DNA of 32,000 nt from an uncultured bacterium (GCA_964640155.1 CAZXEQ010000002.1:240001-272000), one strand, 5' to 3'. Numbered from the stretch's first letter, positions 1 to 21,000 are shown. The notes: generated by a model from the sequence alone, not told the origin. Translations and numbers: made by a program.

Positions 1-3000
1 ACGCTTAAGAACTGGATGCCCTCGAGAGAAAACAGTGTCAACTCTTTCACTCAAAACATTCAAAGCTTTTGTTGGATTTCGATCATTCGTCACCAAATAA
101 CCATAAGCCAAGTGGGTTGTTGCATAATTGGTTACTTCTTCGGACAATTCAACAGCCCTTTGACTAACCTCATGATGAAGCTGGGGACGATCAGCTAAAT
201 TCAAATATTTCTCAATAGCGTTATAAGGCTTCCCAAGCCCTTCAAGATAGGTGATATCTAAAGGTTCTGCCTGTACAGCCGCTCGCACCATCACTAATCT
301 CAAGAGATCACTTAAAACAGCCTTCCCCGCTTGTGCATCTTCACGAGAACGAATATCTTCATTATAAAGAGAGGTGATTTGAACGGCCTCAGAATGGGTG
401 ATTGAACGAGGCTTTTCATCTTTCCTGACAGGTTGATATCCAATAATTTCCGAAACCTCATGAGCAAGCGCGCCCGCTGCAATATTCGGCCCTCTGCGCT
501 TCAACAAAGCTTCAAGTTCATTTGCCTTTGAAAATCCATGTCCTCTATTAAGAAGAGCTGTAGGAATATAAATGGTATAAATTAAATTCCCTTTGTCATC
601 GACTTGGGACTCTGAAATCGCAGGAATAGGTTGAAGCCCATAACCTTCTCTTTCAAATCCTGTCACGTCTGGGCCTAAATCTACAGGCTGAACACGAATG
701 AAAGCTTCTTGATATTGAACGCCATTGATCTCTTTAGCTTTTGCAAGCTGGATCTTAGATGCCTTTCTTTGACCTTTTTTCCCGGATTTCACGCCCAACA
801 AAGCATCTGCAACCCGTTCACTGTGTCCTTGATAGCCTGGAATATCTCCTGCTCCTTCTAAGAGATCACTAACGCCTGTCTCATTAAAATCTTTCCCCGT
901 CATAGGGACTTTGTTTCTACCTTGCTTCTGTACAATAGCTCGAATTCGGGTAAGTACTCTCGCTTCTTCATCACGCTCCAAATGAAACTCATTGGGTGCT
1001 CGTGCGGTGATGGGAGTTCCCGCCGCTGCAACGCTTAAGACTGCATCAGGGGGTTCGACGAATGCTAGAGCTGGTACTTCTGCTGGTACAGGAGCCCTAC
1101 CAGAATCAGTCAAAACCGCTCGACGAGTAGCAATCATAGTAATCCGCTTCTCCAACCCCTCAAACCATCCCTTCACAGGTTCTGAAAATTTTAACTCCTT
1201 TCGATTGGCACGATCAACATTCGGATCGAAGTCAAAAAGAAAATCTAAACTTTTCTGACCACCTGGAGCATCAGCTGTATAACTTGCCGCATCAGACATA
1301 TAAAAAACTTTTAAAATTTCAAAAAACTCTTGCATCGATTTTCCTGATTCACCTGCCATTTTTTGAATCACAACACTTGCTTCTTCTGCAGTTATGAGCT
1401 CTTTCATATATTCCCCCACCGGATCTCCACTGAGAAGTGCTTGAGCAAGTTTGATTTCATTTTCAGAACAATCAAGCTGTCTTAGAAGAAGTCCTACAAT
1501 ACGAACCGTGTGTATATGCTGATCTCTTTTGTCTCCTTGCATAATCGCTAAATTTTTTCCGATATCATGAATCGCAAGAATCATTCTAAAAAAAACTTTA
1601 TCCACACCAGGAATATCTCTATTGCCAAAATAATGTTCAAACTGACGTAAAACCATCTCTGTGTGTTGTTCAATGGTGTAACCCTCTACAAGGTCCGCGC
1701 CTGCTTCTAATTGTTCTTTAAGGAATGGGTTTGCATCCTTTAAGGCTTTTATGAAGGCTTGCGGGCTAAATGAAGTGGCCGATTGAGCTGCCAGCTGACG
1801 AATATTTGAAACATGGGAGCTATTAATACTCTTAAAAGTATTAGAAGAAAGTTCTGATAGTTTCTTTTGAGCTTCTTCAAATGCCTTCCAAAGCCCCGTT
1901 TCTTCGCGTAACACTCTATTTACTTTTTCTTTAGCCTTGCTGATAGCAGCTTGAACATCTGACCTATTTCGAATATTTTCTGGAACTTGTTTTAACATAC
2001 TCTCCAGTACACGTTGACTGATAAGGTCTGTTCGAATGATTGCTTCATCACGAAAACCACTTCGACGTCTCTCTCTAGTGATCCTATCGAATATTCCATT
2101 TGACGCCCTATCTATCTCATCAATTTTCCCAATCACCAATTTTTCGAAAAGATTATTAATCCCCTCGGTATGATTCAAAGCCAAGACTTCATCTTGTAAA
2201 AAAAGGCCCTGAATCATTTCTACTACGGAATTAACATCTTCCAAATAACCCGAAGAGGAGACACTTCTTGTTCTTAGTTGTTCGCGTTGATCCGAAGGTA
2301 GTTTTTTCAAAATCTTATTGAAAGCTCCTTTAAACTTATAGATCTTTCCCTTAAGCGAATAAACCGTTGGAACCTCTAAAATTTTACAAAGCCTTTCCAA
2401 AACAGCTTCCTCTTGACCGTTGCCAGATGTATATTCCCGCAAGAAGACTTGTTCGACAGCACGAAAGAGATCCGATAAGGGAATTTCATTCAATTCATTA
2501 AAAACTTTTTCTTCTTCTCTTAAAAATTTCTGTCGTTCTCGTTCTTTTAACTCTTCATAATCGCGTGTTGTAAATTCTTTACAAGGCACCTTATCTGTTG
2601 AGTCTTTGTGCATCACCGTAATAGAATTCCCTACTCGGGCCACCACATCCCAAAAAATAGGTCGCCCTCTTAACGCTCCCATTGTAGAAGTAACGATAAT
2701 TCTTCCTTCATTACTGTCGCTTGCTTTATACGTTTCAGCTGTTTCTATACCGTCAAGGCCAACGCCCCAATCCGAGCCCCCTAGCTTGGTATCTCCTAGT
2801 AAACCAGCAAACTTTCTTGGAACACTTCTATAAACAGGAACATCATCAGGGAAAAGAGTCATGGTTAAAAGCATTCTCAAATCAGCACGTACGCCCGTCT
2901 TAAAATTTATTCCCATTTCATTGAGAGTTTTCCGGACAAGATCTAGTACTTGAGCACTATTTTGATAGTTTCCGTTTGCTTTTCGACTCACAGCCTCTCG

Positions 3001-6000
3001 AACTTCCCTAATTTTGCTCTCATTTTGTAATAAGACGACCGCTGATCTTTCTTCATCAGAAAGAGAATCCAAAAATTCTTTGATCAATTGGCCCACGTTT
3101 TTATTTGCATCCCAATGGGGATTCTTTAAATGAGCGTTCATCCCATTGAGGATGTTTAACACGCCTTGTGTTGATAAAATTCTTCCTAATTGAGGATATG
3201 TTAAGCTCATAACCTCCTCGTCTACAGTGCTCATCATTGAAATATTTTCTACTGTAGGAGAAATTTTTCTGACTTCCAGAGTATGCACTCTCTCAAAAAA
3301 CTCAGCGAGGATGTGAGCAGGGTCTGCTGATGGATTTCGAAGTGTCAACTGAACATTACCAGAAGCATCAAAGGCGACATCTATGCCTTGCACTTCGAAA
3401 AATGCTATGAGTGCTTCTCTGATATTGTTCGAGCTCGTCGAGAACGAAGCTAAAACTTGTTTTAATTTTTGCTTTGGATTTGAATCAAGACCTAAGTAAA
3501 ATTCACTAAGTTCATGAATAGCCAATTGAACGAGAGCATTGTTATCAGCATTTTCATAAAAAGTTTGTGTGGTATAAACCTTTCCACCGGGTCCTCGGAA
3601 AGCAACCACTTGTTTTGTAACAGGCTTTCCTCCTCTTTTTTGCTCGATCACTGTAAAAAAGGGAGCGCCTTTGTCCAAACTTACAGTGACTTGTGTGTCG
3701 CCACTTTTAAATGTAATCGCACTTATAGATTCAAACGTCACAATCTCTTCCAAACCTTTACCCTCTGAGCCCGCCAATCCATAACGCCCTAAAAATTCAT
3801 CTGCTGTTTTTTCAATCTCATCAAGTTTAGCTTCAGAACGAGTATGAGACACTCGTCCGACCACTTTACTTGCATTGTCAGTATTTTCTAACGCCTTCAA
3901 AACTTCTCCCACTCTCGTCTCAGAGATCGGATGTGAACCTTCGACAGGTTTTGTGGCGGTCCCTCCCATGGTATCTCCTCCACGTGTTGTTCCTGCGCTA
4001 TTAATAATGTTCAAAGCATCTTGAAGAACTTTAGTACGATCTCCTAGAGACACCTCCGCTAACGCCTGAGCAATAGGACCTAACAGTACTCCGTGCAAAG
4101 CAGCATCAAATGGAATTCGGCCTAAACCAATATCACGCGCTATTTCCAACACCGTTGACTTTTTTGAAAAGTCTCTCGCCAGTTGCTGAGCAACTACTTT
4201 ATTTCGAGTTTGTTGAGACAACCCTTGCTTTAGGGCATTCATGACTCGTACTTGTGGTGATTCAAACCATCCGCTCATAGCGTCAAAGACCGAAAGATTC
4301 TTCATAAATGCTTCAATCACAGGGATACGACTTAAAAATGGCATCGCTGAAGAATATTCAGAAAATTGTGGATGATTATCTCCTCCTCCATTCTTAGGAA
4401 TCTGATCACTATATTCATAACCCGGGATAAGAAGAGCTTTTGGAAAATCTAAGAGCAGGGTATTTGTTTTAACGCCAAAACGAGTAACTGTTAGACTTTT
4501 GGGTTGTATATCTGCTAGCCAAACAATGGGATTTCCTTTTTCATCTCGAGTACTTTTAAAGTGAAAATAAATTTCTCCATTTTGAGATTCGAAAATATGA
4601 TTTTGAATCTCTCCATAAAGTGCCCCCTTGCTTGTAAATTTTTGCACCAGGCGACTAAAGTTAGGAGCATATCCCTGTTCAAATTGAATTGAAGAAAGAT
4701 CATCCTTATTTGTCTGACGAGCAATCGTACGTTTCTGGCCTGCAGACTGAGGCGCCATGTCCAATAAAGGTCCAACTTGTTGAAACAATGTTTGTCCCAG
4801 CACCAAAGAAACTTCAAAATCTTTAGGAGCTAACGGACCTCGCATTCCTTTCTCAAGCAATTCATAAAAAAGATTGCCATACTTTGGAAAGTCTCTCTCA
4901 TTACTTTTTTCTATATTTTGATGAATCCAGGCTAACTCTGCCTGGATTTCAATAGGCAAAGATGTTGACTTTTCACTCTTAAAACCCTTTCCAATCCATC
5001 CTCCTGATTCATGAGAAGCAGTCCGCCAAACATCCTGAGAGTTACTTAAATAACAAGAACGAACATAAACTTCACCTTTATGATGAAGATAAAGAATACA
5101 GACGGGCCTCCCTTCGGAATCACGATATGGATCCGAAAAATAATAAACTGCATCTGGGGCACTCACACCAGGATAAGCAATCTGATAACGTGGCTCTAAT
5201 CCAAGCCCATCAAGTTCGGCAAGTGTCATATTTGCATTATAAATATGAACCGGAGCTCCCGAAGCCACAACCCCTTTTAGACTTGTTGCAGCAGTTCCTC
5301 CTCTATAATCTCTTCGTACTTGTTGTAGCAAAACCTTTCGAACATTTAAGCGGCTTTGAGCCTTTTGAATAGCATTTCGTACTGTATCAATGTCCTTTAA
5401 ACTTTTAAAAACCACTTCCAAAGTTGAAACATCTGCTAACTGCGCTCTTTCAACAAAAGCTTCCAACTGTCTTACCATTTTAGGAAGAATACTTTTTTCA
5501 ATAAATTCTAGAGGAGATTCTTTGGTGTAAGTTGCGACTTTAAAATTCATTTTCGCAAAACCAACCAGCCCTTTGGAAAAATCAGGCCATCTTTCTGCTT
5601 GTATAGTCCCTAACACCATTCTTTCTAATTCCTGAGCCACATTCTTCCAAAGAGAACCAAGAACTCGAATATATTTTTGTGCATTGTCAGATTTATCACC
5701 ATAAAATTCAATCATTGCTAAACATACATTTGCCAATACTACCCTTTCTTCTAAACTGATACCTTCCCTGGAAACCCAACTATTAATAGAAGCATCTGCA
5801 CCTGTAGCAAGCTTTTGCATCCATTCACGGCCTTTTACAGATTCTTCTGTCTCAATCCATGAAACAAGAGAATAAACTCTCATAAATTCTGAAGGATTTA
5901 ATGCACTTAAAGCTTTTTGAATCTCTACCTCAGCCAAAGGAATCAATTTATTTTTGATAACAACATGCTGTTCATCAAAAACTGATCTTCCTGCCAAATT

Positions 6001-9000
6001 ATTGTAAAAAACCCCAAAAACCTCATCCCATTCTGTACAAATTGTTTTGAATCCAATATTAAGATGTTCTCGGCTTTCAATCAGAGAATCCACAATCGCA
6101 GAAGCTCGTGCTCGAAATGCTTTATCGATACGAGAAGATACCTTTTGAAATTCACTGCTAACCCTCAGTTTCCCTAGATCTGGACTCGATACAAGTTCTG
6201 CAAGTTTTTCAAGAGAAGAAGCTTGTTGAATCTGAACTTCAAAAGCTTGAACTTTTTGCCCTATATCTTCAGAGACAATCATCTCTTCAGAGGGTTGAAG
6301 TCCCCTACCCCCTCTTATCATCCTATCTACCTCAGCTCTTTGTCGGCCCTGAAATTCTTGATAACCTGGAAGAGACGCTAAGCGAGCCCTCGCATCTCGA
6401 ATATCAGAAAGAGAAGGATTCTGTTTCCCGATAAAATTCTTGGCTGCATTAACATCAATTCCTATTAAAACCTTACTTCGTAGATCTGCTTCTAAACCGC
6501 TAAGACCTTGTTCAATCTCCCTAAACTCTTCATCTGTCATCACAGATTTTGCCCGAGCCTCTCGGCGTTTCATATCTTGATAATCAGCTCGTGCGTGAAG
6601 ACGATCCAAAGCCCGTTGAAGCACTTCTTTAGAGATATCTTTGACACCCAACAAAGCCAAAAATCCTGAACAGGGCAGAACGTTCTGTACCCCTAAATTC
6701 GGTTCTTTGCCTCCTCCTTTAGCGATCCATATGGATAATACATACTCTATGTCCCTTAAAACTTCATCACTTAATACAATGGGTAGAGGCGATGTGGTCA
6801 TAACATAGGTTATCTCGTCTTGATTTCCTCGATTAATGATTATTTCTCCTTCTTCATTGAGATGCAACATTCCTGCATTTTCTAAAATCATCCCTTGGCT
6901 TTTTGTGAGTGGATAATTTTTTCTTCCGTCTCTGGCAACAATGCTGCCCGACTCGTTGTATTCTACGTAAACTCTAGATCGTGGAGTGACAATGCCAATT
7001 CTAACACCATGTGAGAGAGGCAAGGCTTTTACTCCAGACGGCTCTAATGTCTTTGCTGAAAAAACATTCACAACAGGAAAACCTCCACCATAAATCTCTT
7101 GTAAAATGGAAGCCAATTCTTGCTTCTGCGATGCTTCCATCCCGCTCATACGATCCACCCAAAAATAAAGAGCAGAAATTTGTTCAAGAGACAAAGCCCC
7201 TTGGGAAAATAAACTCTTCAAATAGGTTTCTACCGTATTGTAAGGATAGACTCCCTGAGCATACATCGCCATAAAACCACTTAAATAAACAATTCCGTCA
7301 GGAGTTAAGGAAAGAGGAGCTAAAACTGCACCTAAACTATTCTGTATATTTTCCTGAAGCACTTGAGTAGCAGCTTGCCTGAAACTTGCTTCAAAGATCT
7401 GTACTTGTTTTAATTGATCTGGACCTAAAACTTGCCCTATAAGCTCATGATGTGAAAGCCGATCTTCTTGGATAAATCTTACAAGTTTATCAACCGACCA
7501 GTTTTTCATTTTTCTTAACTGCATTCTTAAGAAAGGAGATTCGCTGTAGGAAGTTCTATTATTTTCTACAATTGCATCCGCCCAAGCCAAAGCATGAGCT
7601 TCAGCTTCATCAAAATTTTTACTCGTTCCAGGATTAAATTGTGTAAGTCGAACCGCTTCCCTCGACTCATGATCTACTGCTTCGTCTTGAATAGCCTGAA
7701 CCTCAGATTCATAATCTATTGCCTCTCTCTGCAAGACTGGATCGATCTGGCGATTCACCGCCATATAAAACCTACCCGATCCTTTAGGAAATTCAAAATG
7801 ATGCGCGGTTAAACCTTTCATCTCGGAGGCAGGCGCATACCAAATTCTCATTTTTGTTTTATTCGCATCATTAAGCTCAATTTCTTCTTTTTCGTCTTTG
7901 GCTTGTGCCTCATATCGATTTACAAACGCCTGAAGCTCTGCATCATCGAATTCGACCCCTTTACCTTCATTTCTCAAGCCGACGTCTTTAAGGGCTAGAG
8001 CAGCTTGAGATGGCAAAGCCCCAGCTACGCTTGGCTGAAGCGCCTCACGCCATACCGCTGAAGCCCACTCACCTGAAATCACGCGTGCCATTTGAATAAG
8101 TTGTTGATCTGTAGCTTGGCCTGTCAAATTTTCATTGATCAGCTGGTCCAACCTTTCATCAGCAGAGAGACTTCCTAATCGCGCTAATCGTTCCTCAAAA
8201 TATCTCTCCCACATTTGAAAATCGACAGTAGAATGCCCGCCTAATACCCAGACCATTCTGTTGCCAAAATCAGAACCAAAAGTTTTTAATTCGCCCAAAA
8301 TATTTTTCTGAATATTCGAAGGCAGATTAAGGAAAAATTCTGTCTCAAAAATTCTAGCTAAAGAATCTCCCATATTACCTGTAAGTCCATGTTCTAAACG
8401 CAAATTCGCATCAAAAAGAACAAGCAAGGCTAAATGAGGATATTTTAATAAGGTTTGATCCAAATAAATCTCCCCATTCTCAATACTGAAAACCCTGGGA
8501 ACCTGGGTAAAATGAATTTTTTCGATACGATCAATATTGATTCTTGATCCTGCATGTCTCTTGAATAAGCGAAGTAAACTGGGCCATGCGTCGATAAAAG
8601 CTTGCGGTTGGGGGCGAGAAGACTCATCGACAAACGCCATAGCAGAAGATGGTTCCGAGATTAAAATGTCACCTTGGGGGCCAGCAACTCTCAAAACAAG
8701 TTCTGGAAGTGTAGTACCACCGAAAGCAGCTGAACGATAAGCATTCGTAGCTGTCGGAACAAGTCCTGCTCTCTCACGCAAAGTTCTAATTTCTTCGTGG
8801 TTTCGAATCGCCAAATCAATCACTTGCGCCCATTGCTCTTCAGAAACATTTGCATTTCTCAAAATCATCAAAACAGAACCTGACAATCTTTCCCCTGCAG
8901 CCAAAGTTGCTCTTGCCACTTCAAGAATATTGATAGAAATTTTAGATAAGGAAGTGGCTAGCATACGATAAGCTTCTATTAATCGAAATCTTTCCTGAAT

Positions 9001-12000
9001 ACCACTTAATTGAATTTGAAAATTGGAAATACTCGCTCTTCCATAATAGAGATCCACAATGGCTGCTGCTAAATCCTGAGCTATCAAAGAATGGTTTCTG
9101 GAAAATGCTTTTCCCAATTTTCTCTTCCAATGATTTTCAATTCTAGAAGCCAATAATTTGGCATTATCAGGGAATCCTGTTACAACTAATTCACCTGTAA
9201 GGTAAGTCACCATGCTGTAACAAGCCCTTAAAACATCTAGATTAGGTTGAATTTCATTGGGACCAAGGGGAACTACTGTAATGTTACCAGCTATATCTGT
9301 TATGGGATAACCTTCAGAATCCCAATTTACCTTAAACCCTGGTCGAACATAAACACCGGCCAAAAATCCTTGTCGATTAAAAGTGTAAATATTTTCACCT
9401 TCTGAGGATATTTGAGAAGCCATTCCCCAGTCTATTACTGCAATAGACGGTTCAGAGCTTGATTGAAGATCCACTTCTAAATTTCCATAATGAAGATCTC
9501 CATGGCGTATCCCTTTTTGTGCAAGAGCACCTATAAAATTTCCTATTTGTCCCACAAGAGAGATTTGTTCATGTGGAGATAAATCATAAATTTCTGGAGA
9601 GTCAAATTTAATACTCGCATTCTGATTGCGAATATCGATCATTTTCTTAGTAGAACCACTTTCCGTAAGTTCTCGACGAAATTCTTGAATTTGATATTCA
9701 AGTCGAGCACCTCTTTGTGAAACCATTTTTTCTGATTTTAAAACTTTCACAGCACTTTCAGGTGCAGATTTAAAGAAATCCTCTAAATAAGCATGATAAG
9801 AATCTACAAAGGAATTTGGATTTTGTAGTTCTACTTTAAGCACAAAATTGATAGGCGTTCCGTTAACCATCTTTTGAACAACTATCGCAATACCTTTTTG
9901 CCCAGAACCTAACACTTTCGTAATCACATCAAAATCATAAGCCTCTCCTCTAAGTTTACGTCTGAGCTGATCACGTTGAAGATCCATAATTCCCCCAACT
10001 AACTCGTTCTGAAGAGCTTCATTGGAAGCATAGCCTGTTCCTTGACCACGAATCGTATCTTTCCTTCTCACTTCCCCCGCAATGTCAAGTTCTAATAAGC
10101 CAGGTAAAGTGATAAGGGTTTCTTCTACTACCATGTTTGTTACAACTTCTTCCAAATTTTTCAATCTTCCTATCATTTTAAAAGCAGGCATTTGAAGTAT
10201 TTGCTGTAAGGCAAATCTCTGTTCTTTAGACAAATTGATTAATGCGTTTCCCAAAGCTCCTTCATTAGGGAATGCCCCAGCATAATAACCCACTAAAACA
10301 TAAGCGAGTTTTAAAATAGATTCATAATTTGGGAAAAAATGTCCTGGTAAAAGACTTAAAAAAACAAAGAGATTATTTTCTGGATGGGCAAAAACTTGGT
10401 TGTCAGGATCAAGCCCCATCAAGAAATCTATAATTGTTCTTACTCCTCTCTCACCTAAATACGGAGTTAAATCCTTGATTAAGCGATCATGAAGACTAAT
10501 CAATGCAGCATGTGCTACTTTAACTGACAAATTTCTAGCTCTTTGAACATCGCCTTCACTCAATTGGCCACTGGCCAACAAAGCTTCATTTTCTGGGCTC
10601 AACTCATATCGTTGCATTAATGTAGCAAAATAATCTCTGTCACCTTCCTCTGCTGCATTTCTAAAACTGATTAAAGACAACTCGCTCATGATAGGTTCTG
10701 CATTCCCAGAAACATCTGAAATCCAGACTTGTGCTTGGGTTCTAGAAGCAGGATCTTCATTTAAAAGAGCTTCCCATTGCACAGCCTGCAAATGTTCAAG
10801 CCCTAAAAAGGTTTCTCCAATTTCATGCCCAAATAACGCCAACTGAGCTGCTTGATTCTGGACTGCACTTGCCAAAAAATCTAAACCCCCTCGCGTCACA
10901 TACACCGTATGTTGCTCAATGCCATTTCTAACTCCATCAGGTTTCGTATATGCCATCACAGGACGTTTGCTTTCATCAGTTCTAAACCCAACGTCTGTAG
11001 TCTTCACTACTTGAATATTGAGTTGTACTTGCCGACCATTCCTAAGGGTTACAGACCCGCCTTTTAAAATAGCAGCGACCCATTGATAGAAAAAAGCGAT
11101 TCTAGGATCAAGATCTTGTCGTGTACGAACTTCTTCGTAGAACCTTTCTACAGCAGCCACCAAATTCGCACGCTCTTTCTCATCCATGCTGTCCTCCCCA
11201 AAAAATCCAACCGCTGTATTTACAGATCTCTCTAATTTTTCAGCACCTACATGTGTCCCCGCTGCTTTTCGAGTAGTGGGAGCTGGAGTTTCTAATTTTG
11301 AAATTGCAGCCCGAATATCATCAACTGAAGCTGAGCCATCAATAGCATTTAACACTGTTTCAAGTCCATCAATCGTTGCTGCATCATCGGGATTCACAGA
11401 AGCAAGAGCAGCAGCATAGGGGCTATCTGCTTCACGTAATTTATTCAAGATTTTAATAAGAATGCCTCTCCGATTCGAGATTGGAGACTCTTTTGAAAGC
11501 GCTCGAAGAAATAAAGCATATTTTACAAATCTCATTCCTGTCATAGCAGCCCTGCCTGCATGTGCAGGAGCAAAAGCCCCTGTAAAATCTACACCTAACG
11601 TATCCATTCCTGTTCTAATTTCTTCTTGAACTTCTGAAGGAAGTCTTAAGAAAAACTCTAGTTCTAATGCAGCTGTAATGAGTTCTGCCGTGGCTTTACC
11701 TGCAACATCATAGAGTTCGTACTGTTGATGAATTGCTTCATGAAAAAGAAGATAAGCAATAAAACTAGAATTTTTTGCCAGACGTTCATCATGTAAAATA
11801 AGATGATGAAGACTAATTCTCCCGTTTGAAGTTTGAGCCATACGATCCATAAAAAGAGAAAACCCGATGGGCCCTATTTTATCTGGATCAATCAGGGAAG
11901 AACCATATTGCTGGAGCTTTACCATTACTTCAGGCCAAATTGATTTCAAAACGGTTCCTTGAGGATTTGTATCTGCAGTCCCTTCCAAAGTTATACCATT

Positions 12001-15000
12001 CAAAGTAAAACTTCCTTTTTCTGCATCAAAAACAACTGCCTCTGACGCCATTCCAATTGCAGCAGCTTGCACAGGCTGAGCTGTTAGTCCTACTGCTCTC
12101 CTTAACTTTTGAATTTCAACAGCTCTTGCTTTTACCTCTTTCAATTTGGCTAAAACTTGGTTTTTTCCTGTCACTCGCACATTGGTTAAAAGACTTCGAA
12201 TATCCGAAGATAATACTGCTTCAACCGTAGCACCTGGTTTAGAAAGTCGGCTGATCATCGAATCTAAATTCGCAATCGACACCGCTGCCACTAAACGAGC
12301 GACAACCCGTTCTGGAGTAAGAAGGGAAATCACAGGAGCAATCGGAGGAGCACGTTCTTCTTGATTTAAACGTTCCTCCAATCTTTTCCAGCCTAGTGTG
12401 ACTTGTTCCACTAACGAATCTGAAAGGTTTTTATTAGCTGCATTTCCATCATAAAGAACAGGGAAATCAGCATCGAATTGATTGAGAGCAGCAATAGCAT
12501 CTTGTGTGGAAAGACTATCCAAACTTGCAATAACTCTATCCAATTTAATTTTTGCTTCTTGAAGATCAGGGATCGGAGCACGTGTGCTCGTCCAATAAGG
12601 GAAACTGTTCTCCGCATTTGAAACCGAAAGTGTAGGACGAAACCCCTTTTGAGATTTTCCAAATAAAGTTCTCGATAATTCTCCAGAAGTAAACTGGATT
12701 CCAGCGCGAAGAGTCTTTACAACTTCACGATTAAAGAGTATTCGGACTCCTGTATTTGGACCTTCCACTCCTACCCGGGCTTGCTCTTCAGAAAGATTTA
12801 GAATATTTAAAAATTCATTCCATCTAGAAGCTTTCAAATAAGCATTTCTAACTCTCGGAGATAAAGATGCGACAAAAGCTTTATACTTCTGAGGATCTTT
12901 GAAGCGCAAGCGTTTCGTTAAATCATAATTTACAGCACCATTTGCTATCTCAAGCTCGACAGACTGAACCCCCGGCAAAACCTTTGACATCAATAAAGAG
13001 TAAAGACCTTTTCCACTCAGACTTCCAAAATCTACATTGTGAACAAAAAGAGTATTAGTAGATCTATTAATCCCTAAAGAAATTTGAACATCTGTTGCTG
13101 TTTCAATAAAAATTGAAATAAAGATTTCATTCTCTCCAGATTGAATAGGAGGTGCTCTAATCTGAAATTTTAGAGGATCTCCATTTTCGTCATTAACTAT
13201 TTCCCCATTTTCATACTGCAAGGTAAAACTACCTTGCCTGATAAGCTGAAGAATTACAGGTTCCTCAGCGGCGGGTGGGGCGCGTTCTGCCTGAATAAGA
13301 CGTTCTTCCAATCTTTGCCAAGCTTGAGTAACTTGTTCTACTAACAAATCTGAGATATTTTTATTGGCGGCATTTCCATCGTAAAGAACAGGATAATCCA
13401 TATCAAATTGATTCAACACTTTAATCGCATCCTGCGTAGAAAGACCATCTAAGCTTGCGGTGACTCTATCTAACTCAGCTTTTGCTTTTTGAAGATCAGG
13501 CACAGGAACACGGGTAGCCACCCATTCAGGCCATTTTGAAGATGCAGAAATAGAGATCTTTGGACTAAATCCTTTTTGAATATTTCCAAAAAGAGTTCTC
13601 GATAATTCTCCTGGTGTAAATTGAACTGTTTTCAAAGCTCTTAGAACTCTATTTATAAAAATATTTCGCAAGTCAGAAATACGAGTTTGCTCTTTAACAT
13701 CTGTAGAAGCTTCTGAAAGATTACCCATTTTTTCTAAAAAATGCTCCCAAGTGTTAGAGGTAAGATAGGCATTTTTTACATCGGGAGAAAGATCCGTAAT
13801 AAAAGCTTGATGTCCCTCTATGTCCTTAAACAGAAGTCGTTTGGCCAATGCATAATTTGTATCTCCATTCATCACATCTGTTTCAAACTTATTTATACCA
13901 GGAAGAATTTGCCTCATAACATCACTGACAAGGCCTTGTTTCGCATTTTCTTTCATGTCTATAAAACCGACATATAAAGATTTATTTTCTGAATTAAATA
14001 AAAGCGTCACCTGCATACCAAGCTGCTTAGATAAAATGATAATTTCTCTTTGTCCATTCTCATTCCCAGTTATTTCTTTAACTTGAAACTCGATTTTTTC
14101 TCCATCTCTATCTATCGCTATTAACTTTCCTTCTTGTATGATTTTCAAAATCGCTGGCTGTGGTTCACTCGCAATAGCTCTCACTCGCTTCAAAGCTTCC
14201 TCGAGTACAGCAACCCTTTCTTCTTCTGCAACATTTTCGAGAAGAGGTGTAACTTGGGGCACTGCAAGTCCTCTTTCCCATTGGCTAAATTTATATTCAC
14301 TACCTTTCTTAAGAAGCGTCATTGCTTCAATTGCAGGAGCCAACACCCTTTCTCCAAGAACCATTAATTTTTGAATCACAAAAGGTTCTAGAATTTTTTG
14401 GAATTTCTCGATAGCTTGATCAATAGAAAGTTCCACTCTACTATCTTTAAATTGCACTTTGAGCAGTTCAAGTTTTGAAAGAACCCAAACAATTTCTGAT
14501 TCTTGCTTTGAATTTGCGAAATTTCTTTCCAAAGCATTTAAAGCGTCTGTCACTAAAAGAGTTCTTGTCACTCCATCAAGAATCCTGACTTGCCTCAATG
14601 CCAAAGCAGTCAATGCAACTTCAACTTGTTCTTTAGTACTAGCCATTTGAAATTGATTCATCAGAGCATCTGCTGGTTCTTTAACAATAAATTCAGACAC
14701 ATGCTCTCCCGTTGTTGCTACAAGACCAAAGGTGTAATAACCTAAATCTCCATTAGGGGCTGTAGTATGAAAAATAGTTTCCTGAAGGATAGAAATAACA
14801 CCATGAAAGGCTCGGTCAAGAACTGCTTGTTGAGCAGGATTACGATCAACAATGGCTCCTCCTAACATATAATTGGCAGTAAAAACAGCCACCGTCTCAT
14901 GAGGATTTAACATCCAATAGCGATCATCCTCTGCAGAAGTGGGCTTGATCCCTACTTTCCCATTTGTAAGTTTGAGAACATCATAAGCAAGCCTGTTACT

Positions 15001-18000: not shown

Positions 18001-21000
18001 CTGGGCGGGATTTTCTAAAAGTTTCTTTTGATTGCTGTCGGAAAGAACCTTACCGACAACCCATCTCTTGAAACTTGCTTCATAATTTCTCGCTGCCTCA
18101 ACATCTATGCCTGCTCTTTTTAAAACTTCATAATGTCCAGCACGATCCTTTTGCGTTTCTTCAAGCAAACTTTGAAGTTCGTTGAGAAGGCCTTTCTGAT
18201 CCATATTTCGAAGCGCTAATTCATGATAGGCTGTCACACCCCCTCGAGGGGCAAAACCTCCCTCTGTGTCTTCCCTGGTTTGCTCAGCTGAAGCAATGAT
18301 ATGGGCCGCATGTTCAGGAGTAACCGGCTTTCCATTGATAGTTATTCCGCTAATATCAATTTTGCCAGCCTTAATTTGCTGAAGCCGAAAAGCTTCTTTT
18401 AATTCATGAACAACAGCTTCTTTTGAAACAAGTAAATTACTTTGAATATCTGTGTTAATAACAATAATGAGCGAGTCTTTTCCATCTACTTTTTGAATAA
18501 ACTGATGAGCTGGAAGTCCTTTCATTGCCGCATTGGATGCAAAAGCAAACCGAATAGGCATTCCTGGATTCGTCCTTTGAAAATCTTTCAATGCCGCAGA
18601 AACACGATCATCTTGAAGCGTCTGAGAAATCTTAGCATTATCTGAAGCATCTGAAACAAAAGAAGAAGTCGCAAAAGCATCCAACTCATTTTGAGTAAAT
18701 GAAACTTCTTTATCAGCATCTCTAACACTCGGTGTTCTTAAAGATTGGGCTGATGTAGAATCAGCAGTAACTCCTCTCATCGCCTCTGCAAGTTTTTCTC
18801 TTATTCCTTCAATTGTTCCTGGCAGAATACTTTCGTCAATTTTTGAAAGAACTTCTTCCATTTGTCTTTGAGTTGCTTCAACATTTTGAGCGTTCAATTC
18901 TTGAATCAATCGATTGGCTTCAAAATTTGCCAACATACAATTGGCAACACGAATGCGTTGATACAAAATTTTCTCCACTAACTGAGGATTAAAATTATCA
19001 GCCAAACGCTTTCGATACTTCGCAACTTCATCTGGAGCAAATCCTGCTTTTTTCATTTTTACAGGCAACTCTCGGAGTAATCGTCTTTTTAATGAACCAT
19101 CCCGAATTTTTTCTAATACACCCTGGAGGATAAGGCTGTTTTCTTCAGCAGACTTTTCACTCAAAGACATAGGATATTGCTGAGAATATAGAAGAGTCAA
19201 GATTCTCACGTCTTCTTCTTGAAGTTGAGTCGTTCCAAGATCAATTAAATAAAGAGGACTTTCAGGACGATCACTCGCAAGAATGCCTCCTGCATTTTGA
19301 TCTATTTTCCCCAACAACATATAAAAGAAAGCCAAATTCGTTCTTTCTTCCAATGAAAGTTGCCTCAACACCCCTTTCTGAGGTATTGCTATAGGTTGCG
19401 CATCTAGTTTTTCTGTAACAAGATAGTACTCTGAATTATGTTCATATCCAAAAAGAGGAGATGAACTAAAACCACTAAGACCCAGTTCCTCCAAAAGCAT
19501 TCTTCCAAAAAGCTCATCCATGACGTTGGGTTTACCCACATCTATAGCAGAAAGAACAACATAGGAAGTCCCTTCGGTCGGGGTAATTACTCTAGCTTTA
19601 CGATTATTTCCTCCAATTCTTACTCCTTCAGCGTCTGCTAATTCATGCGGAAGCTGCCCCTTGAATAAACTTTTGTCGATTTTGCCAGAATCAATAATTT
19701 TTCCATAGGGCAGTGCAATTGCATTTTTAGCGTTATCCATGATTGCTTTAAACTGAGTCAGGGAAAGAGTTCCTTTTTTAAGATCGAAAATAGCTTCTGC
19801 TATTTCTTTCGCCGAAGCTTCAGCATCAGCAGGCGATGCTTCATTCTCTTCCCAATGAGATTGAATAGCTCGAGCCAAATCAGAAATAGTCATATCCAAA
19901 TTATCCGACACAATAGTCCCTGTCAAAACCATTGCTAAAATGGGAATGCTATTTAGCACATCACTTTCAGGTTGTTTCTGGTTATCAGCTACATCCTGAA
20001 GCATGATCTCACCCTTATCTTTCATCGGCCTACCAAATGCATCATAGACAATAGCTTTTCCAGAAGGAACCATCACTTTAACTATTTTTTCACCCTCCCA
20101 CACAGTAATTTCTTTTGGGTCAAGTCCATATGAACGACCCGGCATATCAATAAATCGAACCTTTCCTTCAGGTGTTAAAACAATATTCTCCCAATGAATA
20201 TCCCCATGGCCTATACCTTTTCTTTCCATATAAAGGAGGCCGCCTACAATTTGAGAAAGAACATCTAATTGTTGCACGGGGTTCATCTCCCACAGTCGAA
20301 GTGCAAATTCTTTAAAAGATTCCCCTGAATTAATAAGCCTTCCTTTATCTTTAACCATTTTCTTGATAGGAACGATTGGAGTTAAATCCCCTTCATAATC
20401 TTGAATTTGATATTCCGCATTTAATGAGGAGAGAAGTGCAGATTCTCGAACTCTGGTAAATATTTCAGGGCAAGATTCATCCTCATAAAAAGGTCTTAAA
20501 ACGTCTTGAAATCTTCCATGGAAAGACTCTCGGCGAGGCACTAGCGACATCACCTTTAAAACATATTCTCGAGGAAGGTTGGAAGAGTCTATGTCTTCCA
20601 TCAATAAAACAAGTCCTTGTTTTCCACTACCTAAAATAGCTTTTACGCGTCTCTTCCCTGAAGTTTTGGCATTTACAAAAGTTTCAACAACTCTAAGAAT
20701 TGTTGCGCGTTCTTGTACATCTTCAACACCAGTGATAGCTTCAAATTGGGATTGAATTTCAGACAGTGTTAAGCCTAACTCTTTTTCTGAGAATCGATAA
20801 AAAATGGGATTTTTACCTAAAGGGGAAACAATAAGCGAAGACCCTCGCATCTCAAGCTTAATGTGTTTTTGTGAAATCACATTCGGCTGACCTGGGAAAT
20901 GATCTCTTCCTAATTCTATGGACTCACCAGGAGCTAACCGCATTATTTTTTGGCCAGGTATTTCTATATAATAAAATTGTTCGCCTGACGCTCCTATCAT

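Follow-up and report, generated by a model that had tools for sequence, protein, structure and literature searches.

A stretch of 32,000 nucleotides from an uncultured bacterium (GCA_964640155.1 CAZXEQ010000002.1:240001-272000; "the window" below denotes the whole of it) carries on its minus strand an uninterrupted open reading frame that runs from position 25101 to position 1, with 8,367 stop-free codons and a strongly negative GC skew along its length. The giant protein encoded there contains two kinase-like domains, K1 and K2, the first of them preceded by an FHA-like segment, and a cluster of secretion- or pilus-type genes is transcribed divergently from it (Table 1). Here, we report that K1 and K2 represent a very rare branch of the protein-kinase-like superfamily, duplicated in giant orphan proteins and captured by no Pfam or NCBIfam model; their assignment to the kinases stands on firm ground, and they form a new family. 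The branch is marked by an HGDxHxxN catalytic loop and by a β-rich insert that replaces the activation segment, and it is shared with a single close relative, the giant protein P0001. That large bacterial proteins should contain kinase modules is no surprise in itself, and the proposed FHA function, export and activity towards another cell are hypothetical.

Table 1. Features of the window, with residue numbers of the giant protein where these apply.
Feature	Position	Strand	Residues	Basis or remark
Giant open reading frame	1..25065	-	at least 8,355	from ATG 25065 (likely start); frame leaves the window at position 1
Signal-peptide-like N-terminus	24946..25065	-		basic then hydrophobic, MTQPLKQRSH...VVSWCTLFTFFFTSLGLPQAQD; sequence
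N-terminal domain	23386..24822	-	94-572	about 28% identity to P0001 residues 76-569
Module A, copy 1	21337-22074	-	1013-1250	27-30% identity among the three copies
FHA-like segment	20767..20979	-	1375-1445	phmmer, BLASTP, hhalign; string of the original prediction at 20806-20916
K1 kinase-like domain	19711-20664	-	1480-1797	BLASTP, family HMM, profile, model
K1 glycine loop	20608-20634	-		LGSGKQGLV
K1 β3 lysine strand	20551-20562	-		VLKV
K1 catalytic loop	20185-20208	-		HGDIHWEN
K1 DFG-equivalent	20137-20154	-		FIDMPG
K1 αF motif	19918-19965	-		DV...LTG
Module A, copy 2	18007-18789	-	2105-2367	
Module B, copy 1	16897-17925	-	2393-2734	
Module C, copy 1	16102-16899	-		about 40% identity between the two copies; AIHE(I/L)(T/S)E motif
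Module D, two copies in tandem	12322-14205	-	3633-3950 / 3931-4258	up to 59% identity
Module B, copy 2	11302-12330	-	4258-4600	
K2 kinase-like domain	8986-9939	-	5055-5372	BLASTP, family HMM, profile
K2 glycine loop	9886-9912	-		LGSGQKGIA
K2 β3 lysine strand	9832-9843	-		VLKV
K2 catalytic loop	9481-9504	-		HGDLHYGN
K2 DFG-equivalent	9421-9438	-		VIDWGM
K2 αF motif	9193-9240	-		DV...LTG
Module B, copy 3	8182-8946	-	5375-5642	
Module A, copy 3	7297-8049	-	5685-5935	
Module C, copy 2	3187-3978	-		
PilB/GspE ATPase	25714-27420	+		Pfam T2SSE 2.5e-140
PilT-like ATPase	27524-28618	+		Pfam T2SSE 1.5e-49
Second PilB/GspE ATPase	28646-30352	+		Pfam T2SSE 1.2e-136
PilC/GspF platform protein	30448-31710	+		Pfam T2SSF 1.7e-65

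Two kinase-fold domains and their relatives

The motif strings from which the original prediction recognised two paralogous kinase-like domains were all found, in the order proposed, in the single minus-strand frame of the uninterrupted reading frame. Aligned with BLASTP, K1 and K2 share 27% identity over 321 residues (E=1e-26), a similarity far beyond chance, and judged by sequence the two are true paralogues. Compared with the spans first proposed, 19950-20650 for K1 and 9300-9960 for K2, the domains are about 250-300 bp longer at the 3' side, where an αF-type motif and C-terminal helices are found. The (S/L)DVL...LTG of both copies is the counterpart of DxWxxG...LTG in αF (subdomain IX) of eukaryotic-like kinases. 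With a hidden Markov model (HMM) of the family the limits fall at residues 1471-1799 for K1 and 5041-5377 for K2.

The K1/K2 family is extremely rare, and all members seen to date are duplicated domains of two giant proteins that are orphans in other respects. When 1.84 billion cluster representatives were scanned exhaustively with HMMER at a cut-off of E<=1e-3, 23 proteins were returned; P0001 is the single close relative among them (E=4.5e-36), and the next-best nine (P0002-P0010, all of those scanned) are ordinary Pkinase-domain proteins. Of about 15 billion proteins searched, P0001 is the sole other carrier of the domain. A word-indexed homologue search gave no match for K1 together with the FHA-like segment or for the segment alone, while a search of genome contigs for relatives yielded one weak match to an ordinary kinase in Parafilimonas, and a search of metagenome contigs yielded no relative of the family. 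P0001 has 6,482 residues, is encoded at L001 10001-29449 on a Logan SRR22387960 contig of 44.8% GC, and harbours two kinase-like domains of its own (residues 2842-3260 and 3690-4084).

When these four domains are aligned, copies from different proteins share about 25% identity and copies of the same protein 27-32%, and the corresponding scores are 57-69 bits between proteins and 98 and 139 bits within each. That the copies are closer to each other within a protein than across proteins fits independent duplication or concerted evolution. Only three parts are common to the two giants, namely a signal-like N-terminus, the N-terminal domain and the pair of kinase domains, and this retention points to the kinases as belonging to the functional core. 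As the sole part kept apart from the N-terminal domain, they also constitute the best experimental handle on the role of the giants.

Among the few columns invariant across the four domains are two glycine columns of the glycine loop, the HGDxHxxN catalytic loop with its catalytic Asp (the base) and magnesium-binding Asn, the aspartate equivalent to that of DFG and the αF motif D-V...L-T-G, and they thus include residues on which a phosphotransferase depends. The GxGxxG region of the glycine loop reads LGSGKQG in K1, LGSGQKG in K2, and LGAGKKG and IKGGLEG in P0001. Each of the four domains has a β3 lysine within (V/A)LK(V/I), which reads VLKV in K1 and K2 and ALKV and ALKI in P0001, where one of the copies is offset by two columns. 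The DFG-equivalent aspartate occurs in the contexts FIDMPG, VIDWGM, LLDFGG and LIDPDN, in which neither the Phe nor the Gly is conserved, and in the four-domain profile HGDxHxxN aligns with the HRDLKPxN of StkP.

The sub-threshold Pfam matches of the four domains belong exclusively to the kinase clan: APH and Pkinase were each matched by three of the four, ABC1 and PK_Tyr_Ser-Thr by two. K1 scored 21.5 bits against Pkinase (E=1.7e-4, cut-off 31.7), and K2 scored 20.1 bits against ABC1 (E=3.7e-4, cut-off 22.9) and 19.9 bits against APH (E=6.9e-4, cut-off 23.2). Matches to NCBIfam models (Bud32, UbiB, LanKC and PknB) were weak and far under their cut-offs, and the weak matches in both collections all cover the stretch of αE and the catalytic loop. 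The four-domain profile searched against the PDB gave a much richer return, with about 1,500 distinct sequences at E<1, the best 60 being kinases or kinase domains without exception. StkP ranked first (E=4.4e-7), with an alignment that covers αE, the catalytic loop and DFG and has the N-lobe in register; the Hanks-type kinases PknB and DAPK were also among the best, and the matches included LanKC (8sao, E=3.8e-5).

An AlphaFold2 model of residues 1300-1800, built on the four-domain alignment, gave for K1 a predicted local distance difference test score (pLDDT) of 66 and a predicted template modelling score (pTM) of 0.55. In the canonical order, it arranges five N-lobe strands with an αC helix, followed by αE, the catalytic and magnesium loops, αF and three more helices (β1-β5/αC/αE/αF-αI), and it puts the lysine of VLKV in the third N-lobe strand. 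A Foldseek search of this model against the PDB returned 1,869 chains at E<=1e-3, headed by PknB (3f69, E=2.5e-7). Every one of the top 50 is the catalytic domain of a protein kinase, with target-normalised template modelling scores of 0.31-0.63, mostly >=0.5, and alignments mostly of 310-390 columns. As modelled, the predicted fold of K1 is thus the bilobal kinase fold. With kinase-clan matches alone in Pfam, a significant profile match in the PDB and a structural search that returned kinases, K1 and K2 are well supported as kinase-fold domains, and this part of the original prediction stands.

Probable catalytic activity and substrates

K1 and K2 are probably highly divergent but complete and active protein-kinase domains of the Hanks type. 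Because the catalytic residues have been kept at about 25% identity, the domains are taken to be active phosphotransferases and not pseudokinases, and the C-lobe of eukaryotic-like protein kinase (ePK) type makes serine or threonine in a protein or peptide the most likely substrate. Such domains would bind ATP-Mg and phosphorylate these residues. They resemble PknB, PknA and StkP in their predicted bilobal fold and in the order of glycine loop, β3 Lys, catalytic Asp/Asn, DFG Asp and αF Asp, and they differ from Hanks-type receptor kinases in being modules, two per protein, of polypeptides longer than 6,000 residues and in carrying a variable β-rich insert.

There are also departures from the Hanks type that weigh against an ordinary, active protein kinase. 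None of the domains reaches a curated threshold of Pfam or NCBIfam, that of Pkinase included. In the catalytic loop the usual HRDxKxxN has become HGDxHxxN, with Arg replaced by Gly and Lys by His. A helix is predicted at the position of αC, yet the four-domain alignment has no invariant acidic column for the αC Glu, nor does it contain a clear APE motif; directly ahead of αF it has a conserved [QS]P[EN]xDV, which follows the variable β-rich insert. K2 scores slightly higher against the APH and ABC1 models, which describe small-molecule or atypical kinases, than against Pkinase, and the model of K1, for which four sequences were available, reaches no more than moderate confidence. The β-rich insert found in place of the activation segment is highly variable in length among the four copies, and this exchange, together with that of the catalytic-loop Lys for His, leads us to expect atypical substrate recognition and regulation.

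The same features could be read as those of a kinase fold put to other use, either as a small-molecule, lipid or peptide phosphotransferase (APH/ChoK/UbiB-like or of the lanthipeptide-synthetase type) or for other ATP chemistry such as AMPylation or glutamylation. We regard this as unlikely, although a small-molecule substrate is a rival to be taken seriously. In its favour are the best Pfam scores of K2 and two other family members, which are to APH and ABC1, the DxHxxN catalytic loop with its likeness to a peptide-kinase motif of polymorphic toxins, the weak NCBIfam matches to UbiB, Bud32 and LanKC, the LanKC structure among the PDB matches, and the insert that has displaced the activation segment. 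However, the weak matches all fall on one catalytic-loop stretch and do not discriminate between subfamilies, whereas the best profile matches are to the Hanks-type StkP, PknB and DAPK, the C-lobe holds the ePK-specific αF motif DV...LTG with the helices that follow it, and the top 50 structural matches are all ePK protein kinases over about 320 aligned columns.

A related question is whether K1 and K2 belong with the peptide kinases of polymorphic toxins. A DxHxEN motif has been described for the Tox-Peptide kinase, which is related to the kinases of lantibiotic synthetases (PMC3482391), and the DIHWEN of K1 fits it, as the DxHxxN catalytic loop of the family does in part. Further points of likeness to LanKC/LanL and the Tox-Peptide kinase are the weak LanKC matches and the placing of a kinase module in a large, possibly exported protein. 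Unlike LanKC/LanL, K1 and K2 lack a lyase or cyclase domain as partner, and the matches to Bud32, UbiB and PknB are at least as strong as those to LanKC. The evidence does not single out the Tox-Peptide kinase/LanKC clade for K1 and K2, and the divergent Hanks-type protein kinase remains the preferred description.

The FHA-like segment ahead of K1

K1 is preceded by a β-rich module of about 70-100 residues that is probably a diverged FHA core of the APLF type, its extra β-strands upstream of the FHA-like segment reaching to about position 21081. The original prediction had put an FHA-like string about 40 residues upstream of K1; the string actually ends 57 residues before the glycine loop. Residues 1384-1445 matched the FHA domain of human APLF (5e50, residues 18-79) at E=1.3e-5 and 28.6 bits in a phmmer search of 177,635 PDB sequences with a query of 126 residues, and at E=8.7e-5 with one of 461 residues. 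Alligator APLF, which is annotated with PF17913, was matched by BLASTP at E=5e-6 over 32 residues, and a two-sequence APLF profile aligned to the segment with an hhalign probability of 93.5% over 67 columns. With human APLF as the query the segment scored 27.7 bits against a maximum of 9.8 among 5,000 composition-matched shuffles, and with alligator APLF 16.5 bits against a maximum of 10.2 among as many shuffles. The signature residues G1398-R1399, S1410-x-x-H1413 and N1430 align with IGRG, SRRH and NP of APLF, and their spacing (R to S 11, S to H 3 and H to N 17) lies within one residue of that in human APLF (12, 3 and 18).

Other results weigh against an FHA domain. For residues 1350-1460 no Pfam family was found at E<=10, the FHA families PF00498, PF17913 (FHA_2) and PF16697 (Yop-YscD_cpl) included, and none in NCBIfam. 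Among FHA structures in the PDB, APLF alone was matched by phmmer, and the score falls from about 28 bits with human APLF to 16.5 bits with its alligator orthologue. The C-terminal third of the FHA sandwich is without a clear counterpart, the stretch in question being predicted as helical at low confidence. A single-sequence AlphaFold2 model of the region (pLDDT 69) has eight strands followed by a helix, and its best Foldseek match was at E=0.42 with no FHA domain in the top 50; as the model was built without an alignment, this failure to match a fold is weak evidence. Finally, the module is absent upstream of K2 and from P0001. Weak phmmer matches in the PDB of residues 1350-1389 to T-cell-receptor V-domains (E 0.03-0.7) were treated as chance.

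It is a serious possibility, though one we hold with less conviction than its opposite, that the segment is a β-rich linker or domain unrelated to FHA, that it resembles APLF in part by chance, and that K1 and K2 are plain duplicated kinases. The missing Pfam and fold matches, the isolation of APLF among the FHA structures, the lower alligator score and the lack of a counterpart in P0001 or ahead of K2 all agree with such a view. Opposed to it are the significance of the APLF match in a search of that size, the profile alignment, scores above all shuffles with both APLF queries and the five signature residues in near-identical spacing. On balance, and by a modest measure of confidence, we favour a diverged FHA core, so that the FHA part of the original prediction holds for the APLF similarity and the signature residues and finds no backing from family models, fold comparison or the relative.

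If functional, an FHA module in this position would dock the cassette on a phosphothreonine site, either one made by the kinase itself or one on a primed target, following the logic of Chk2/Rad53. An FHA domain N-terminal to a kinase is a known order in Chk2, Rad53 and Dun1, and bacterial FHA-kinase fusions have been documented in the CCM1 family, likewise with an N-terminal FHA. The window protein is similar to these in having its putative FHA about 40-60 residues N-terminal to K1 on one polypeptide. It differs from Chk2/Rad53 and CCM1 in that the FHA-like module is of the APLF/PNKP/APTX subtype (PF17913), is marginally detectable, accompanies one of the two kinase copies and is absent in P0001. 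The combination had been called unusual in the original prediction; for the domain order this does not hold, while the kinase family and its setting in a giant protein are very rare indeed.

Giant-protein setting and site of action

The giant protein begins with a basic and then hydrophobic, signal-like N-terminus, a comparable one is found in P0001, and no further strongly hydrophobic segment occurs in the 8,367 residues of the window protein. Across about 650 bp of intergenic DNA (25066-25713) lies the divergent cluster of type II secretion or type IV pilus genes (25714-31710, plus strand), in which both PilB/GspE-type ATPases are full-length and carry MshEN domains. The signal-like N-terminus and the adjacent genes make an exported or surface-deployed setting the most likely one. 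The giant would then be a multi-module protein with kinases that operate in the presence of ATP and hence within a cell with which contact has been made, and this is the least supported step of the proposed mechanism. Export, delivery into another cell and phosphorylation of its proteins are plausible but inferred. P0001 counts against export, with secretion genes absent from its vicinity and with internal transmembrane clusters.

The giant protein might instead stay at home, as a scaffold in the cytoplasm or tethered to the membrane, its kinases directed at the protein itself (in cis) or at other proteins of the producer, for example in regulating the neighbouring pilus or secretion machine; we consider this possible, if only tentatively so. 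ATP, on which kinases depend, is not present beyond the cytoplasm, and pairs of FHA proteins and Ser/Thr kinases regulate bacterial secretion systems, as the PpkA-Fha1 pair does for type VI secretion. In P0001 transmembrane clusters at residues 837-918 and 5206-5431 lie on either side of both kinase-like domains, and its gene has housekeeping neighbours (PNPase, FtsK, RodZ, MiaB, MnmA and CinA). On the other hand, both giants start with the signal-like sequence, the window protein is devoid of any second hydrophobic segment, and export has been the interpretation put forward for giant genes that adjoin type II secretion-like loci (10.1101/2023.11.21.568195; 10.64898/2026.06.07.730766). If the kinases act in cis, phospho-regulation would be built into a giant scaffold.

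Giant genes of Omnitrophota adjoin type II secretion-like loci (10.1101/2023.11.21.568195; 10.64898/2026.06.07.730766), and the window is similar to these loci in arrangement, having a gene of more than 25 kb with a signal-like N-terminus beside GspE/PilB, PilT and GspF/PilC. The Omnitrophota giants are rich in recognisable Pfam enzyme domains, whereas the window protein has essentially none above threshold, and of their repertoire of enzyme, HEAT and dockerin domains Pfam found none in it.

In concept, an exported kinase that gains activity only once it is in the cytoplasm of another cell, where ATP is present, within a protein of several effector-like modules, would be analogous to known bacterial effectors and toxins. 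YpkA/YopO, the LegK family, OspG/NleH and SteC are translocated effector kinases, and MARTX is a multi-effector toxin. In contrast to this conceptual likeness, no sequence relationship to any of these was detected, OspG_kinase and others being unmatched. In its most far-reaching form the export reading would have a multi-effector carried into a prey or host cell with the help of the adjacent secretion- or pilus-like machine, there to have its kinases rewire or poison phospho-signalling while the FHA module steers K1 to acidic phospho-Ser/Thr motifs; a Chk2-like cassette would thus serve as a weapon, and the conserved core would define a new class of giant kinase-effectors. We think this scenario improbable. 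If the kinases do act in another cell, they would represent inter-cellular effectors of a new type.

The N-terminal domain had no Pfam match, and its profile had none in the PDB. Two motifs are invariant in it between the window giant and P0001, D-x-H (within LILIQDSH) and TGGFHT. These we take to be reminiscent of the paired GxxH-type motifs of ChaN/Tiki/TraB-like proteins, a resemblance that neither Pfam nor the PDB supports. In P0001 a proline-rich stretch lies downstream of the second kinase.

The remainder of the giant protein consists of repeated orphan modules, A to D, without Pfam matches; the profiles of A and B were also without a match among PDB sequences. A third kinase-like unit was suggested by eye at 18922-19719 on the minus strand (residues about 1815-1960), right after K1, on the strength of the strings IGGNNRKARV, YYLVTEKLD, GKIDQNAGGIL and LYLIDLGTT, and was rejected as it was supported by neither phmmer against the PDB, Pfam nor the family HMM. 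Near the visible C-terminal end an HD-domain-like motif, H...HDIGK...D, is found at 1555-1569 on the minus strand (residues 7845-7849), with no Pfam match at E<=10. Module A has the invariant elements MKGLxAHxF, H-E-x-x-E and a downstream A-H, which by their sequence look like a metal-binding or hydrolase site. Copies 1 and 2 of module B carry FHEAIHQQY, a motif of the HExxH zinc-protease type that is lost from the third copy, the one immediately behind K2. Apart from these, a true HExxH (HEIAH) is located at 15442-15456.

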